This document shows positions 20,829 to 25,856 of a DNA stretch of 64,000 bases, in pieces. Made by a program: the position numbers and the translations under genes. The DNA comes from Gemmatimonadales bacterium. GTDB lineage: Bacteria; Gemmatimonadota; Gemmatimonadetes; Gemmatimonadales; GWC2-71-9. Under the pieces are notes generated by a model that was not told the origin of the DNA, made no database searches, and saw only the letters and a list, made by a program, of their open reading frames with translations. How positions within the stretch are numbered: position 1 is the stretch's first letter; every line of letters starts with the position of its first letter. Location: the NCBI GenBank assembly GCA_035763885.1, contig DASUAH010000034.1, forward strand, positions 104 through 64,103, given 5' to 3'.

Positions 20829-22292
20829 TCAGGGGCCGGTGGGAAGTGGAGTGATCTCGATACGGCGGTTCGTGGCGCGACCAGTGACCGTGGTGTCGCT
20901 GGTGATGGGAGCGGTGGCGCCGTAGAATTTCGGCACGAGCTGCTGCGGACGAATGCCCTTGTTGATGAGATACGAGCGCACCGCCTCGATGCGAAGCGTG
21001 GCGAGCTGGCGGCTGTCGGTCTGCGACCGCGAGCTCGCGGTGTGGGCGCCGACCTCGACCCGCAGCGCGGACGTTGCGAGCAGTACGTTCGCGATCGAGT
21101 CGAGCACCGGGTAGGCCTCGGCGCGCAGCCGCGCGCTGCCGAGGGCGAACGCGGCGTCGCGGAGCACCACGGGCCGGGGGGCCGCCGCAGGTGTCGGGGC
21201 GGGGGCGGGGGCCGGCGGAGGCGCGGGCGGAGGCGCGGGACGCTTCTGCGGACGCGCCCCATCTGAGGGGCAACCCTCGCGGTCGACCCGGGTAGCGGGG
21301 GGCGTATCGGGGCAGCGGTCGAGCCCGTCGAGCACCTCGTCCCCGTCGGTGTCGTTGGGGCAGCCCAGCGCGTCGACCGTGGCGCCGGGAGGTGTGTCCG
21401 GGCAGCGGTCGAGCCCGTCGGGGACCTGGTCCCGATCGGCGTCGCTGGAGCATCCGAAGGCGTTCACGGCGGCGCCAGCGGGGGTGCCCGGGCAGCGGTC
21501 GATCCCATCGGGGATCGCGTCGTTGTCTTCGTCGAGCGGGCAGCCATTCTCCCCGGTCCGCACGCCGGCGGGCGTGGCGGGACACCGGTCGATGCCATCC
21601 GCGACCCCATCGTTGTCGGCGTCGGTGGGGCAGCCCTTGCGGTTCACCAGCGCGCCCGCGCGGGTTCCCGGGCAGTCGTCGTCGGCGTCGATCACCCCGT
21701 CGCCGTCCGCATCCACGAGCGCCTTGCTGCCCAGCATGAGGCTCAGGCCCAGCGTGCCGCCGAAGTTGGAGAACTTGCGCTGCCCGAACGCGTCGCTGCT
21801 GCTGATATTGCGTTGCACGGTGCCGTCAGCTCGCACGAGCAGGGTGGGTGTGATGCCGATGCGGAAACCCGCGCCCGCACTCCACGTACCTGCGCTACCG
21901 CAAGCGCCCGCTCCTGGCGTGGACTGGGGCGCGCATTCGCCGTAGCTGATGGATCCGAGACCGGCCCTGAGGTGGAAAAAGTTTCGCTCACTGAGCGGAA
22001 TATTGTAAAGAAGCGAGCCGCCGACCGACGTCACGCCGACGGCATCGCCACCTGCCTGCGGCTTTGCGCGCACGTAGGAGAGCTCGCCCTCCAATGAGAA
22101 GCGCAGCGGCAGCCATAGGCCTAGTCGCCCGGTGCCGCCATATCCCGTTCCGTACCCGGTCGTGTCGTCGAGGGCCGTGAGCGCGCCGGCGGCGCCGAGC
22201 TCGACCAGATAGCGGCGTTGTTGAGCGGGAGCGGAGGCCGGGGCGAGGAGCAGCAGCACGAGCGGGAGGGATACGACGCGCCGGAGGGCCAT
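20829..22292 (-). CDS. OmpA-family outer-membrane protein with thrombospondin type-3 repeats
   Basis: Signal MALRRVVSLPLVLLLLAPASAPAQ, N-terminal beta-barrel, repeated D.D.DGV.D..D.CP motifs, a Pro/Ala linker, and a C-terminal OmpA peptidoglycan-binding domain (NRRIEI). Confidence 0.9.
   Translation of the reverse strand: MALRRVVSLPLVLLLLAPASAPAQQRRYLVELGAAGALTALDDTTGYGTGYGGTGRLGLWLPLRFSLEGELSYVRAKPQAGGDAVGVTSVGGSLLYNIPLSERNFFHLRAGLGSISYGECAPQSTPGAGACGSAGTWSAGAGFRIGITPTLLVRADGTVQRNISSSDAFGQRKFSNFGGTLGLSLMLGSKALVDADGDGVIDADDDCPGTRAGALVNRKGCPTDADNDGVADGIDRCPATPAGVRTGENGCPLDEDNDAIPDGIDRCPGTPAGAAVNAFGCSSDADRDQVPDGLDRCPDTPPGATVDALGCPNDTDGDEVLDGLDRCPDTPPATRVDREGCPSDGARPQKRPAPPPAPPPAPAPAPTPAAAPRPVVLRDAAFALGSARLRAEAYPVLDSIANVLLATSALRVEVGAHTASSRSQTDSRQLATLRIEAVRSYLINKGIRPQQLVPKFYGATAPITSDTTVTGRATNRRIEITPLPTGP
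21250..21720 (-). repeat. in-frame tandem TSP3 (calcium-binding) repeats inside the OmpA gene
   Basis: About five copies of (D.D.D.V.DG.DRCP.TP.G..V...GCP) can be seen at both the protein and DNA level (recurring gggcagcggtcga[gt]cc[cg]). Confidence 0.7.
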
Positions 22293-22344
22293 GGCAAATA
22301 GATACCCGCGGCCAAGGTGGGTGACAAGCCGCGGGTGCGCGGGC

Positions 22345-22373
22345 TTGGCAGCACGACGGACGGCGGGTAAGAT
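22345..22373 (+). promoter_or_regulatory. sigma70-like promoter TTGGCA-N17-TAAGAT upstream of the selW-like gene
   Basis: -35 at 22345-22350 and -10 at 22368-22373. The predicted 5-prime UTR is about 40 nt, with GGAGAG Shine-Dalgarno at 22411-22416. Confidence 0.4.
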
Positions 22374-22419
22374 GCGACGGCCCGAGTTCCCAACGGTCCG
22401 GAGCGAACCAGGAGAGCAC

Positions 22420-22653
22420 GTGCGCGTCGTGATCGAATACTGCGTCGTTTGAAACTACCAGCCACGGGCCGCCGGTCTGGCGGCCGAGCTGAAGCGGGAG
22501 TTTCCCGAGGCGGACATCCAGCTGATGCAGTCGTCGGGGGGACGATTCGAGGTCAGCGTGGACGGGCGCCTCGTCTTCTCCAAGGCGAAGCTGGGCCGGC
22601 ATGCCCAGCCGGGGGAGGTGCTGAATCTCATCCGGAGAGGGAGCGCCGAGTAA
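22420..22653 (+). CDS. selW: Rdx/SelW-like selenoprotein (77 codons) with in-frame UGA (Sec) at 22450-22452
   Basis: GTG 22420 opens MRVVIEYCVV[TGA]NYQPRAAGLAAELKREFPEADIQLMQSSGGRFEVSVDGRLVFSKAKLGRHAQPGEVLNLIRRGSAE, ending at TAA 22651. The TGA falls at the second position of the family CxxC/CxxU redox motif. Family-typical residues (RAA..LA.EL, GG.FEV.VDG) continue in frame after the TGA. Confidence 0.8.
22459..22491 (+). promoter_or_regulatory. bacterial SECIS-like stem-loop
   Basis: The upper stem GGCCGCC (22467-22473) pairs with GGCGGCC (22479-22485) around apical loop GGUCU. The lower stem is CAGC (22459-22462) with GCUG (22488-22491). The upper stem starts 14 nt after the UGA. The loop sequence resembles the E. 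coli fdhF SECIS apex (GGUCU). Confidence 0.6.
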
Positions 22654-22690
22654 GCCGTGAGCGTGGGCTGCTTACTGCACACCACCTACT

Positions 22691-23770
22691 ATGAGGATCG
22701 CGATTTCCACGGGCGGCGGCGACGCGCCGGGCCTCAATGCGGTCATCCGGGCCGTCGTGCTCTCCGCGCAGCATCGGGGCTGGCGCTCCTACGGCATCCT
22801 CCGCGGCTACGACGGGCTGCTCGCGTTCAGCGGCGTCGTGCCGCTTGGCCCGGAGCAGGTGCGGGGGATCACCCACCTGGGCGGCACCATCCTCGGCACC
22901 AGCAACCGGGGGAATCCGTTCCGTTACATCGTGAAGGACGCGGATGGGAGGGAGCGGGAGGTGGATCGCTCCGACGACCTCGTGGCGGCGTTCCATGCCA
23001 GCGGCTTTGACGCGTTGGTGGCCATCGGCGGCGACGGCAGCCTCACCATCGCCTACGAGCTCTGGAAGAAGGGGATTCCCGTCGTCTGCGTGCCCAAGAC
23101 GATCGACAACGACGTGCCCGGGACCGAGCGGACCTTCGGCTACGACACCGCCGTCGCCACCGCCACCGACGCCATCGACAAGCTCCACTCCACGGCCGAG
23201 AGCCACGAGCGCGTGATCGTGGTCGAGCTGATGGGCCGCTATGCCGGCTGGATCGCGCTGTCCAGCGGGGCGTCGGGCAGCGCCGACGTGATCCTGCTGC
23301 CCGAGATCCCGTTCGATATCGAGAAGGTCTGCGAGAAGATCCGGGCCCGCGAGGCTGCCGGGCGCCGGTTCAGCATCGTCGTGGTCGCCGAAGGGGCGCG
23401 CCCCAGGGACGGGGACATCGTGCTGCTCGAGCGCCGCAGCGCGGGCGCGGCGGACCGGCTCGGCGGGATCGGCGGCAAGGTGGCACGGGCCATCCAGGAG
23501 CGCACCGGCAAGGAAGTGCGTACGCTGGTGCTCGGGCACCTCCAGCGCGGCGGCTCGCCCACCACGTACGATCGTCTGCTGGCGTTGCGCTTCGGGGCGG
23601 CGGCGGTGCGTGCCATCGCGGACCGCGCCTTCGGCGTCATGGTCGGCCTCAACGGCCCCACCATCACCCGGGTACCGCTCGCGGAGGTCGTCGGAAGGCC
23701 GCACAACGTCCCGCTCGACTCCGACATCGTCGCCACCGTGCGCGACCTTGGCATCAGCCTCGGGGACTGA
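22691..23770 (+). CDS. pfkA: 6-phosphofructokinase (PfkA family; GGDGS + PKTIDND motifs)
   Basis: 359 aa. MRIAISTGGGDAPGLNAVIRAV, AIGGDGSL, CVPKTIDNDV, MGRYAGWIAL. Confidence 0.9.
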   Translation: MRIAISTGGGDAPGLNAVIRAVVLSAQHRGWRSYGILRGYDGLLAFSGVVPLGPEQVRGITHLGGTILGTSNRGNPFRYIVKDADGREREVDRSDDLVAAFHASGFDALVAIGGDGSLTIAYELWKKGIPVVCVPKTIDNDVPGTERTFGYDTAVATATDAIDKLHSTAESHERVIVVELMGRYAGWIALSSGASGSADVILLPEIPFDIEKVCEKIRAREAAGRRFSIVVVAEGARPRDGDIVLLERRSAGAADRLGGIGGKVARAIQERTGKEVRTLVLGHLQRGGSPTTYDRLLALRFGAAAVRAIADRAFGVMVGLNGPTITRVPLAEVVGRPHNVPLDSDIVATVRDLGISLGD

Positions 23771-25856
23771 TCTCCTGCCGCCGCCGCAGACCCGCCGCGC
23801 CGACCTGGTCGAGGTGATCCACGGCGAGTCGATCGCCGACCCCTACCGCTGGCTCGAGAACGGCGACAGCGCCGAGACCAGGGCCTGGACCGAGACGCAG
23901 AACGCGCTGACCGAGGCCTACCTTTCGGCGTCGCCCGCCCGCCCGCTCATCCGCGCGCGACTGGACGAGCTGCTGGCCATCGGCGCGCTCGGCACGCCCA
24001 CGCCGGTGCGGGGCCGCTACTTCTATCAGACCCGGGACGGCCGCCAGAATCAGCCGGTGCTCAACGTCCGCCAGGGCGTCCACGGCGCCGACCGCGTGCT
24101 CCTCGATCCGAACACCATGAACCCGGACGGGACCACCGCGCTCGACTGGTGGCACCCCAGCGAGGACGGGCGCATGCTCGCCTACGGGCTCTCGGAGGAC
24201 GGGAGCGAGGAGAGCGTGCTCCACGTGCTGGACGTCGAGAGCGGAGCGGTCGGGCCCGACCGGATCCCCGACACGCGCGCGGCGGACGTGGCGTGGCTTC
24301 CCGACGGGACGGGGTTCTACTACACGCGCTTTCCGGCGCGTGGCACCGTCGCGGACGGTGACGAGCACTATCACCGGGCCGTCTGGTTCCACCGGCTCGG
24401 CACCGACCCGGCGACGGATTCGCTGATCTTCCGTCCCGCAGAGAAGGAGTTCTGGCCGGCGGTGAGCCTCTCGCCCGACGGCCGGTGGCTCCTGATCAGC
24501 GTCTCCCGGACCTTCGAGCAGACCGACCTGTGGCTCCAGGATCTTCGCGCGGGCACTCCTGCGGTCGCGGTCGCACGCGATCTCCCCGCACTGTTCGACG
24601 GCGGCGTGGTGCGCGACCGGCTCTACGTCCGCACCAACCTCCGCGCCCCCACCTACGGCCTCTACGAGATCGACGCGGAGCGGCCGCGCCTCGACGAGAT
24701 GCGCGAGCTGGTGCCCCCCCGGGCCGACGCGGTACTCGACGGCGCGGCTATCGCGGGCGACCACCTGCTGCTCACCTATCTGGAGCGGGCCACCTCACGG
24801 CTCCGCATCGCACGCCGGGACGGGAGCGCCGTGCGCGACCACCCGCTGCCGGGCATCGGCAGCCTTTTCGGCCTCGGCGCCGAGTGGGACGGCGACGAGG
24901 CGTTCTACGGGTTCTCGTCCTACACGACGCCACCCAGCGTCTTCCGCATCGACCTGCGGACGGGCGAGGAGACCCTGTGGCGGCGGGTGGAGGCCGAGGT
25001 GCAGCCGGAGCGCTTCGAGGTGCGGCAGGTGGAGTATCGCTCGCGCGACGGTACGCCGATTACCATGTTCGTGGTCCAGCCGCGCGGGGTCGAGCTGGAC
25101 GGGAACAACCCCACCTACCTCACCGGCTACGGCGGGTTCAACATCAGCATGGCCCCCGCGTTCTCCCGCTCGCTCGTTTTCTGGCTGGAGTGGGGCGGTG
25201 TCGTCGCGGTGCCGAACCTGCGTGGCGGCGGCGAGTACGGCGAAAGCTGGCACCAGGCCGGCATGCTGGCGAACAAGCAGAACACCTTCGACGACTTCAT
25301 CGCTGCGGCGGAGTGGCTGGTCGCGAGCGGATACACCCGGCCCCGCCGGCTGGCCGTGGCCGGCGGGTCGAACGGCGGGCTCCTGATGGGGGCCGCGCTC
25401 ACGCAACGTCCGGAGCTGTTCGGGGCCGTGGTGATCCAGGTGCCGCTGCTCGACATGCTGCGCTACCACCGCTTCCTCCTCGCGCGGCTCTGGATCCCCG
25501 AGTACGGCTCGCCCGACGACCCCACGGAGTTCCGCTGGCTGAGGTCGTACTCGCCGTACCATCACGTCCGCGACGGGGTGTCCTATCCGGCGGTGCTGCT
25601 CTCCACCGCGGAGGGCGACACGCGGGTGGATCCGATGCATGCGCGGAAGATGGCCGCCCGGCTGCAGGCCGCGAGCGTCTCCGGTCGTCCGGTGCTGGTC
25701 CGGCTCGAGTCTCGCGCCGGCCATGGGGCGGGTAAGCCGCTTTCCAAGGTGCTGGACGAGCTGACGGACAGCTGGACCTTCATCAGCCGGGAGTTGGGGG
25801 TCGAGGTGGGCCCCGGTACCGCTTACCGTTCACCCGGAGGAGGACCTCACGCATGA
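23748..25856 (+). CDS. prolyl oligopeptidase (S9A family)
   Basis: N-terminal PPPQTRRADLVEVIHGESIADPYRWLE, a beta-propeller region, then the catalytic domain with the GGSNGGLL nucleophile elbow. There is no ATG near the N-terminus. The proposed start is TTG 23748 (overlapping the pfk 3-prime end); alternatives are CTG 23775 and GTG 23814. Confidence 0.85.
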   Translation: MASASGTDLLPPPQTRRADLVEVIHGESIADPYRWLENGDSAETRAWTETQNALTEAYLSASPARPLIRARLDELLAIGALGTPTPVRGRYFYQTRDGRQNQPVLNVRQGVHGADRVLLDPNTMNPDGTTALDWWHPSEDGRMLAYGLSEDGSEESVLHVLDVESGAVGPDRIPDTRAADVAWLPDGTGFYYTRFPARGTVADGDEHYHRAVWFHRLGTDPATDSLIFRPAEKEFWPAVSLSPDGRWLLISVSRTFEQTDLWLQDLRAGTPAVAVARDLPALFDGGVVRDRLYVRTNLRAPTYGLYEIDAERPRLDEMRELVPPRADAVLDGAAIAGDHLLLTYLERATSRLRIARRDGSAVRDHPLPGIGSLFGLGAEWDGDEAFYGFSSYTTPPSVFRIDLRTGEETLWRRVEAEVQPERFEVRQVEYRSRDGTPITMFVVQPRGVELDGNNPTYLTGYGGFNISMAPAFSRSLVFWLEWGGVVAVPNLRGGGEYGESWHQAGMLANKQNTFDDFIAAAEWLVASGYTRPRRLAVAGGSNGGLLMGAALTQRPELFGAVVIQVPLLDMLRYHRFLLARLWIPEYGSPDDPTEFRWLRSYSPYHHVRDGVSYPAVLLSTAEGDTRVDPMHARKMAARLQAASVSGRPVLVRLESRAGHGAGKPLSKVLDELTDSWTFISRELGVEVGPGTAYRSPGGGPHA

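Follow-up and report, generated by a model that had tools for sequence, protein, structure and literature searches.

A predicted SelW-like selenoprotein gene with an in-frame UGA and a conserved hairpin within its coding sequence in Gemmatimonadales

The window, i.e., the whole stretch of 64,000 nucleotides from a Gemmatimonadales bacterium that was analyzed, contains on its forward strand, at 22420–22653, what is best explained as a selenoprotein gene of the SelW-like/Rdx family with a functional SECIS within the open reading frame. From the comparison of sequences, this reading is given a probability of about 0.9. Translation would begin at GTG 22420 and, with the ribosome at the UGA of 22450–22452, the mRNA hairpin 22467–22485, lying ahead within the coding region, would bind the specialized elongation factor SelB carrying Sec-tRNA(Sec). 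Selenocysteine would be inserted, termination would be avoided, and translation would run to the TAA at 22651. The product would be a 77-residue thiol/selenol oxidoreductase with the motif Cys8-Val-Val-Sec11, the CxxU being placed between strand 1 and helix 1 of a thioredoxin-like fold and presumably alternating between the selenol/thiol and the selenenylsulfide states. This reading implies that UGA is decoded as selenocysteine in the source organism and in at least 80 related Gemmatimonadales species.

The coding sequence consists of 77 codons plus the stop codon. A Shine-Dalgarno-like sequence, AGGAGAG or GGAGAG as read off the DNA (22410–22416, forward strand), lies 3–5 nt 5′ of the start codon, and the TAA stop occupies 22651–22653. 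Codon 8 is TGC (22441–22443), coding for the cysteine that opens the CxxU redox motif, and codon 11 is the in-frame TGA (22450–22452), the predicted selenocysteine codon; the motif is thus Cys8-Val-Val-TGA11. Translated in the frame of GTG 22420, the gene gives VRVVIEYCVV, the TGA, NYQPRAAGLAAELKREF...RRGSAE and the TAA. Start codon, Shine-Dalgarno sequence, TGA, stop codon and translation had all been proposed in a preliminary description of the region, and each of them was confirmed in the sequence.

Standard ORF calling splits this gene. In the ORF list, no entry covers it whole; there are an in-frame 5′ piece (22291–22452), an in-frame 3′ piece (22525–22653, 42 amino acids) and an out-of-frame ORF that starts with TTG (22449–22694, 81 amino acids). 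The latter is the only one to survive a cut-off of 60 amino acids, and at this cut-off the list agrees with the earlier remark that the gene had no ORF and that only the TTG ORF was displayed. Recognizing the selenoprotein mends the annotation.

For the comparison with relatives, genomes were scanned, one per species, with a 13-sequence alignment as the query, and the best 80 of 518 relatives were taken; together with the window copy they make up the 81 sequences referred to below. All except one of the 80 recovered loci are labelled Gemmatimonadales, Gemmatimonadota or Gemmatimonadetes, and the closest genome match to the selenoprotein among these best 80 of 518 is 81% identical. The start codon is ATG in 74 of the 81 sequences and GTG in seven, and only 35 of the 81 show a Shine-Dalgarno-like motif.

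Concerning the protein family, the profile searches were run on the 77-residue translation with Cys in place of the TGA. The assignment to the Rdx/SelW family, made earlier from the sequence alone, was borne out by Pfam Rdx (PF10262), which was matched over profile positions 1–74 of 74 with E = 1.6e-22 and 79.9 bits (cut-off 22.6). The NCBIfam models NF041051, for SelT/SelW/SelH family (seleno)proteins, and TIGR02174 (CXXU_selWTH) were matched with 100.8 bits (cut-off 88) and 66.3 bits (cut-off 34.2), respectively. Curated NCBI models already cover SelW-like selenoproteins. Among solved structures, the matches ranged from E = 1.9e-10, for human MIEN1 (2ljk), to 2.8e-3, and included A. tumefaciens Atu0228 (2fa8), S. 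avermitilis SAV_2001 (3dex), the bacterial SelW-related structures 2obk, 2p0g, 2oka and 2ojl, and mouse SelW (2npb). Cys8 falls on the first Cys of CxxC in the solved Rdx proteins, and the TGA codon on the second one (CEPC in MIEN1, CTQC in Atu0228). These alignments with 2ljk and 2fa8 agree with the placement of the TGA at the second residue of a CxxC/CxxU motif in the preliminary description.

The fold was judged on the AlphaFold model of P0002, a Cys-form homologue 76% identical to the window protein, which was used in place of the window's own sequence. This model (pLDDT 92.8) displays strand 1 at residues 2–8, CxxC at 8–11, helix 1 at 14–27, three more strands and a C-terminal helix, so that the redox motif is located at the end of strand 1, ahead of helix 1. 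Its best PDB matches were 2fa8 (TM 0.90), 2obk, 3dex, 2ojl, 2oka and 2p0g, with TM values of 0.84–0.90; MIEN1 and mouse SelW came next, and thioredoxins after them. According to this model, the window protein is predicted to be of the thioredoxin-like beta-alpha-beta-beta-beta-alpha fold. In 2FA8, 3DEX, 2LJK and 2NPB, the redox motif occupies the same place in the fold as in the window protein, but MIEN1 and the solved bacterial proteins carry Cys (CxxC) and have about 100 residues or more, while the window protein is shorter and of the Sec form.

Considering the 81 sequences (best 80 of 518 relatives plus the window), codon 11 is an in-frame TGA in every one of them, hence in 80 of 80 species genomes, and the protein is conserved on both sides of it. 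The conservation in frame 3′ of the TGA, to which attention had been drawn earlier, is strong: it extends to 81/81 sequences, and the 66 residues 3′ of the TGA still match Pfam Rdx on their own (E = 3.1e-15). On the 5′ side, Cys8 is invariant in the 81 (TGC in 77, TGT in four), and the ten codons that precede the TGA are conserved in amino acids and variable at synonymous sites, with Val10 encoded by GTC in 56 sequences, GTT in 18, GTG in five and GTA in one, and Tyr7 by TAC in 64 and TAT in 12. Amino-acid conservation combined with synonymous variation indicates that these first ten codons are translated in the frame of the gene.

These facts are difficult to reconcile with a TGA that is a genuine stop. 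The locus would then be a decayed or split Rdx pseudogene, or else an upstream ORF of 10 codons and, after it, a C-terminal fragment with its own initiation, starting for instance at ATG 22525, and it is true that mechanical ORF calling yields exactly such a picture and that many public calls in relatives are fragments of 52–59 residues starting after the TGA. However, the TGA and the frame are kept in 80 species, and the ten codons 5′ of it are conserved as protein. The next ATG of the window gene (codon 36) is replaced by Leu, Ile or Val codons in relatives, no start codon being conserved 3′ of the TGA, and the active site of the fold would be missing from a fragment devoid of strand 1 and of CxxU. 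A genuine stop is considered extremely improbable.

The search for homologous proteins gave 88 sequences of three classes. Two of them are full-length, with either Trp or Cys at the critical position (CVVC or CVGC in the Cys class, which includes one protein with Ser), and the third one is formed by the many calls of 52–59 residues that begin just 3′ of that position. The Trp was rejected as an artefact, the gene of P0001 having TGA at this point and the pipeline having used a code in which TGA means Trp. Public pipelines mis-call the relatives: some become 5′-truncated 'Rdx family proteins', and others are given at full length with Trp in the place of Sec. Codons other than TGA occur occasionally in rarer homologues, which are metagenome variants: TGT or TGC in L081–L085 and TCA (Ser) in L086. 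The interchange of Sec and Cys at the CxxC column, together with the conservation of the TGA, supports the reading of the codon as Sec.

Another explanation is that the UGA is read through without Sec, by near-cognate suppression with Trp or Cys or by a lineage-wide reassignment (code 4/25), the hairpin merely slowing the ribosome. Reassignment is ruled out by the use of TGA as a stop. It is the commonest stop of the window, where it ends 45 of the 75 confident ORFs, it ends both downstream neighbours (the genes for phosphofructokinase and for a peptidase), and it ends 67 of the 81 Rdx genes themselves (best 80 of 518 relatives plus the window). Since TGA is the commonest ordinary stop, the genetic code is not reassigned; and since UGA serves within one and the same mRNA as a sense codon and also as a stop, a local signal is required. 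Suppression could draw on the several JGI gene calls that give Trp at the codon and on the failure to find Sec machinery in the window and in about 1.3 Mb of related flanks, but Trp at codon 11 would destroy the redox motif. Moreover, the codon aligns with the catalytic Cys of CxxC and its natural variants are Cys, a pattern diagnostic of Sec/Cys exchange, and the apex of the hairpin matches the SelB-binding apex of E. coli fdhF, including the constrained GGU. Read-through without Sec is thus regarded as very unlikely.

The SECIS-like element as a whole spans 22459–22491 on the forward strand, with a lower stem enclosing an upper stem-loop, and its core is the hairpin 22467–22485. In agreement with the two-part stem described earlier, the upper stem contains 7 bp, all of them G/C (22467–22473 with 22479–22485), closing the loop GGUCU (22474–22478), and the lower stem contains 4 bp (22459–22462 with 22488–22491). 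The spacer from the TGA to the start of the upper stem at 22467 is 14 nt, and the loop starts 21 nt after the UGA. This structure is the minimum-free-energy one of the segment 22447–22500, with −21.8 kcal/mol, a value that is unexceptional in a sequence with 71% GC (z = −0.87; 33 of 200 shuffles were equal or better) and remains so in a longer context (z = +0.11). As the folding energy is unremarkable, the case for the hairpin is made by comparison.

No gaps are needed to align the 54 nt around the TGA in the 81 sequences (best 80 of 518 relatives plus the window). Among them, 96.3% of the cells of the upper helix are paired, and four of its seven pairs show changes on both sides. The covariation score was 0.216, compared to 0.101 in column shuffles, none of which (0/500) reached 0.216, and to at most 0.082 in controls in which the partner was slid by 1–3 columns. 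The pair 21–39 joins the third positions of the codons for Arg16 and Ala22, both of them synonymous, and is found as GC in 41 sequences, AU in 23, CG in eight and GU in one, being unpaired in eight. On a neighbour-joining tree of the adjacent phosphofructokinase protein (53 taxa), at least seven independent switches between GC, AU and CG took place, so the covariation does not reflect one inherited event. The pair 25–35 is an A-C mismatch in 13 relatives.

The codons that form the hairpin are nearly frozen at their synonymous sites. Ala18 is GCC in 63/63 cases, Gly19 is GGT in 62/63 and Ala21 is GCG in 76/78, while Leu20 is CTG or TTG in 81/81 (best 80 of 518 relatives plus the window). The entropy of third positions is 0–0.17 bits in the hairpin versus 1.2–1.95 bits at the other Ala and Gly codons of the gene, and GGT is a minority Gly codon at all the other Gly positions. 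Within the loop, the second base is G in 81/81 and the U after it occurs in 90% or more; the first base is A in 18 of the 81 (best 80 of 518 relatives plus the window). Some amino-acid replacements come in compensating pairs, as in L053 (AIGLMA, GCCATC/GATGGC) and in L064 and L080 (AAGLVA). When about 2.9 Mb (both strands of the window and of related loci) were searched for hairpins of at least 6 bp with a loop RGUYU, 74 were found, and 66 of these were this same SECIS-like element. Altogether, the comparison indicates that the hairpin 22467–22485 is under selection at the RNA level.

This does not extend to the 4-bp lower stem. It is 73.5% paired, with one of its pairs broken in 44 of the 81 sequences, so it is not counted as a conserved part of the element, and the lower helix is probably non-essential. 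Of the two-part stem of the preliminary description, therefore, both parts are present in the window and only the upper one is conserved.

The element was compared with the SECIS of E. coli K-12 fdhF (UGA140 region), of which the geometry and the loop had been claimed to be reminiscent. In both cases, the hairpin lies within the ORF, close to the UGA on its 3′ side. The apex is GCA-GGUCUG-CAC in fdhF and GCC-GGUCUG-GCG in the window, the hexamer being identical, and GGU CUG codes in frame for Gly-Leu in both genes. The distance from the UGA to the hexamer is 18 nt in fdhF and 21 nt in the window, which is one codon more. So, the likeness stands, with an identical apex GGUCUG and a slightly longer spacing. 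In the consensus of bSECISearch, the apical loop is reportedly situated 16–37 nt from the UGA, a range that includes the 21 nt of the window. The G and the U of the fdhF loop are the bases that contact SelB; they are constrained in fdhF and, in the window gene, they are frozen against the codon bias. There are also differences. The 5′ arm of the fdhF element contains a bulged U, while the window element is without it and has a longer, perfect 7-bp G/C stem; the bulged U characterizes the E. coli element and is not known to be general among bacterial SECIS. The window loop can be drawn with 5 nt, or with 3 nt closed by a G-U or an A-U pair, and the A found as first loop base in some relatives is unlike fdhF.

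It could also be that Sec is inserted without the hairpin acting as the SECIS; the hairpin would then be either a by-product of the palindromic codons for Ala-Ala-Gly-Leu-Ala-Ala or a structure with another role, for instance in translational pausing or in the stability of the mRNA. The high conservation of the peptide RAAGLAAE, the unremarkable folding energy and the lack of a match to an Rfam SECIS are in line with such an explanation. Nevertheless, selection on the protein cannot fix the synonymous thirds of the codons for Ala18, Gly19 and Ala21, nor can it make the third positions of Arg16 and Ala22 covary with at least seven independent double changes, and the compensating replacements of L053, L064 and L080 point in the same direction, as do the position and the apex sequence shared with the proven SECIS of fdhF.

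The Cys and Ser forms bear on this question from both sides, as Cys homologues are expected to be without the hairpin. The close Cys forms (TGT in L081 and L084, TGC in L082 and L083) and the Ser form L086 keep 7/7 pairs and the loop, which would favour a hairpin with a function other than SECIS. Each of these five is, however, one base away from TGA within an otherwise very similar gene, and they look like recent conversions or variants that carry a relic SECIS. On the other hand, the GGUCU loop is no longer present in L085, a Cys form that is more distant (CVGC...AAALAA). As a control, these forms speak neither for nor against the SECIS, and the argument is carried by the synonymous sites, the switches on the tree and the likeness to fdhF. 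Little credence is given to a hairpin unrelated to Sec insertion, and the interpretation of 22467–22485 as a SECIS is maintained.

A match to a curated covariance model was not obtained from Rfam. A scan of the whole window at the gathering scores gave no matches, and a permissive scan (E ≤ 10) of 22350–22750 gave no SECIS family. In Rfam, bacterial SECIS elements are modelled for particular lineages and genes. A sub-threshold match to chrB-a in the same segment 22350–22750, with 16 bits against the required 43.9, was judged to be due to chance.

SelB and tRNA-Sec are the signature genes of the Sec-decoding trait (PMC1273633, accessible text). ARAGORN found no tRNAs in the window and no tRNA-Sec in 60 related loci, and tblastn with the E. 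coli proteins SelA, SelB and SelD gave no match in the window or in 86 related loci, the related flanks covered by these searches amounting to about 1.3 Mb. The presence of the machinery in the host (selA/selB/selC/selD) is indicated only indirectly, by the selection that would keep the TGA and the hairpin in 80 species. A second selenoprotein gene was not found in the window, where a scan for coding sequence with in-frame TGA gave only back-to-back genes sharing a frame, and in the approximately 2.9 Mb searched no other selenoprotein gene with a hairpin of the same type appeared, bar one doubtful case of low GC3 (L037). Concerning the use of Sec in Gemmatimonadetes/Gemmatimonadota, no statement was found in the accessible portions of the literature, where papers naming both Sec and the phylum do not relate one to the other, and BSepDB leaves out unnamed 'sp.' or 'bacterium' genomes, a class to which most of these MAGs belong.

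With respect to its kind, the window protein agrees with the bacterial SelW-like/Rdx selenoproteins in size (about 75–80 residues), N-terminal CxxU and thioredoxin-like fold, and the gene agrees with theirs in having the Sec codon about 10–13 codons from the start and the SECIS within the coding region; no difference in defining features was seen. According to the accessible text of PMC1088965, PMC2398784 and PMC1794560, the SelW-like CxxU proteins are a major bacterial selenoprotein family, chiefly of the Sec form, and they are present in many sequenced bacteria (PMC1794560). The counts given there are 427 Sec versus 56 Cys forms in the GOS marine metagenomes (PMC2398784) and 48 versus seven in the Sargasso Sea (PMC1088965). 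Here, too, Sec forms are commoner than Cys forms, and in the Gemmatimonadales clade of the window copy the Sec form is universal among the 80 sampled genomes (best 80 of 518 relatives). Since the protein displays every testable defining feature, it is a member of the SelW-like kind of selenoprotein already known. This family is well known and ranks with the most abundant selenoproteins of bacteria, and the gene is a correct but ordinary annotation rescue. Mildly new are the presence of the Sec form in all the Gemmatimonadales sampled and, as the less expected feature, the tight pairing with phosphofructokinase.

The phosphofructokinase gene (pfk, 22691–23770, forward strand; Pfam PFK, E = 8.8e-103) is the downstream partner of the Rdx gene and is followed by a prolyl oligopeptidase gene (23790–25856, forward strand). 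Among the best 80 of 518 relatives, pfk immediately follows the Rdx gene, on the same strand, in 67 of the 71 loci with enough downstream sequence. In 19 loci, the end of the Rdx gene and the start of pfk share the 4 nt ATGA, and about 20 others have a spacing of −1 to +4 nt between stop and start. The two genes of the window are 37 nt apart, with no terminator-like site found between them, and they are probably co-transcribed. The adjacency in 67/71 loci, together with about 40 junctions that overlap or are within about 4 nt, suggests synthesis in a fixed proportion. As far as the accessible text of the selenoproteome papers PMC1088965, PMC2398784 and PMC1794560 goes, the linkage to pfk is not mentioned.

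That the SelW-like selenoprotein of Gemmatimonadales might serve phosphofructokinase as a dedicated redox partner, or regulate it, is a speculative proposal drawn from this gene arrangement, and on present grounds an unlikely one. If it were true, it would provide the first concrete client for the functionally uncharacterized bacterial Rdx family and, in a widespread soil phylum, would tie glycolytic flux to selenium status. The coupling to pfk can be taken as a modest, testable lead on the function of the bacterial SelW-like proteins.

On the upstream side, the neighbour is a divergent gene of the OmpA family (20829–22292, reverse strand), coding for a beta-barrel domain and thrombospondin type-3 repeats. 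The intergenic region between this gene and the Rdx gene contains, on the forward strand, a promoter-like site formed by TTGGCA, a 17-nt spacer and TAAGAT (22345–22373). It was located by a consensus scan that found this one site versus 0.1 expected, which is weak evidence for a promoter. The sequence TAAGAT occurs also 5′ of the start codon in L001, the closest relative.

The Rdx selenoprotein gene (22420–22653, plus strand, in the window) and the phosphofructokinase gene pfk (22691–23770, plus strand) were same-strand neighbours in 67 of the 71 Gemmatimonadales loci. Considering the stop region of the Rdx gene in the related, TGA-containing loci L001–L080, the stop overlapped the pfk start by 4 nt (ATGA) in nineteen loci, and the distance between them was about 4 nt or less in roughly 20 others. 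In the window, stop and start codon lie within 22651–22693, with a gap of 37 nt between them. Such overlap or near-contact of stop and start suggests that the translation of both genes is coupled. The pfk start codon is also spanned by a match to the Rfam chrB-a RNA (22688–22739, plus strand), which scored 16.2 bits, below the gathering score of 43.9, with E = 2, and is probably due to chance. On the other, upstream side of the Rdx gene lies a divergent gene (20829–22292, minus strand) for an OmpA-family protein that has an N-terminal beta-barrel domain and thrombospondin type-3 (calcium-binding) repeats; this arrangement is conserved in 54 loci.

Concerning the start of the Rdx gene, one subclade (L003, L005, L008, L009, L011–L020 and L024) shared the motif GTCAAGCGCGACTATCGTTTACG 25 nt upstream, e.g., L008:9973–10000, with the motif end 2–3 nt from the ATG. 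The motif resembles a −10 box whose placement would suit a leaderless mRNA. In contrast, the window displays a Shine-Dalgarno sequence, AGGAGAG, before the Rdx start; motifs of this kind were present in only 35 of the 81 sequences.

The complete hairpin, with its GGUCU or AGUUU loop, was kept in close homologues in which the TGA is replaced by TGT or TGC (Cys) or by TCA (Ser), i.e., L081:564–800, L082:729–959, L083:1501–1728, L084:488–715 and L086:95–322. These look like either recent conversions of Sec to Cys or Ser with a relic SECIS, or sequencing variants.

In public metagenome calls, Trp occupied the Sec position in eleven JGI proteins and one from ENA (P0001, P0003, P0005–P0009, P0012, P0023, P0024, P0028 and P0039; DNA site L090:5403–5633), because TGA was read with a code in which it means Trp. 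The codon of P0001, checked directly in the DNA, is TGA, and several Trp-form calls continue beyond a TGA stop, ending in W. Other pipelines gave 5′-truncated calls of 52–59 residues, such as P0032, ‘Rdx family protein’.

Across the approximately 2.9 Mb scanned (both strands), just one further TGA preceded a hairpin of similar RGUYU type, in L037 near 11495 (minus strand). It is unlikely to mark a selenoprotein gene, since the spacing is 29 nt, GC3 is low (0.67) and a redox motif is absent. Finally, a 1746-bp contig binned as Candidatus Methylomirabilota (L052, JAKEHP010000462.1) nevertheless carries a Gemmatimonadales-type Rdx locus, with 66% identity and the same TGA and hairpin; this contig is probably a binning contaminant.
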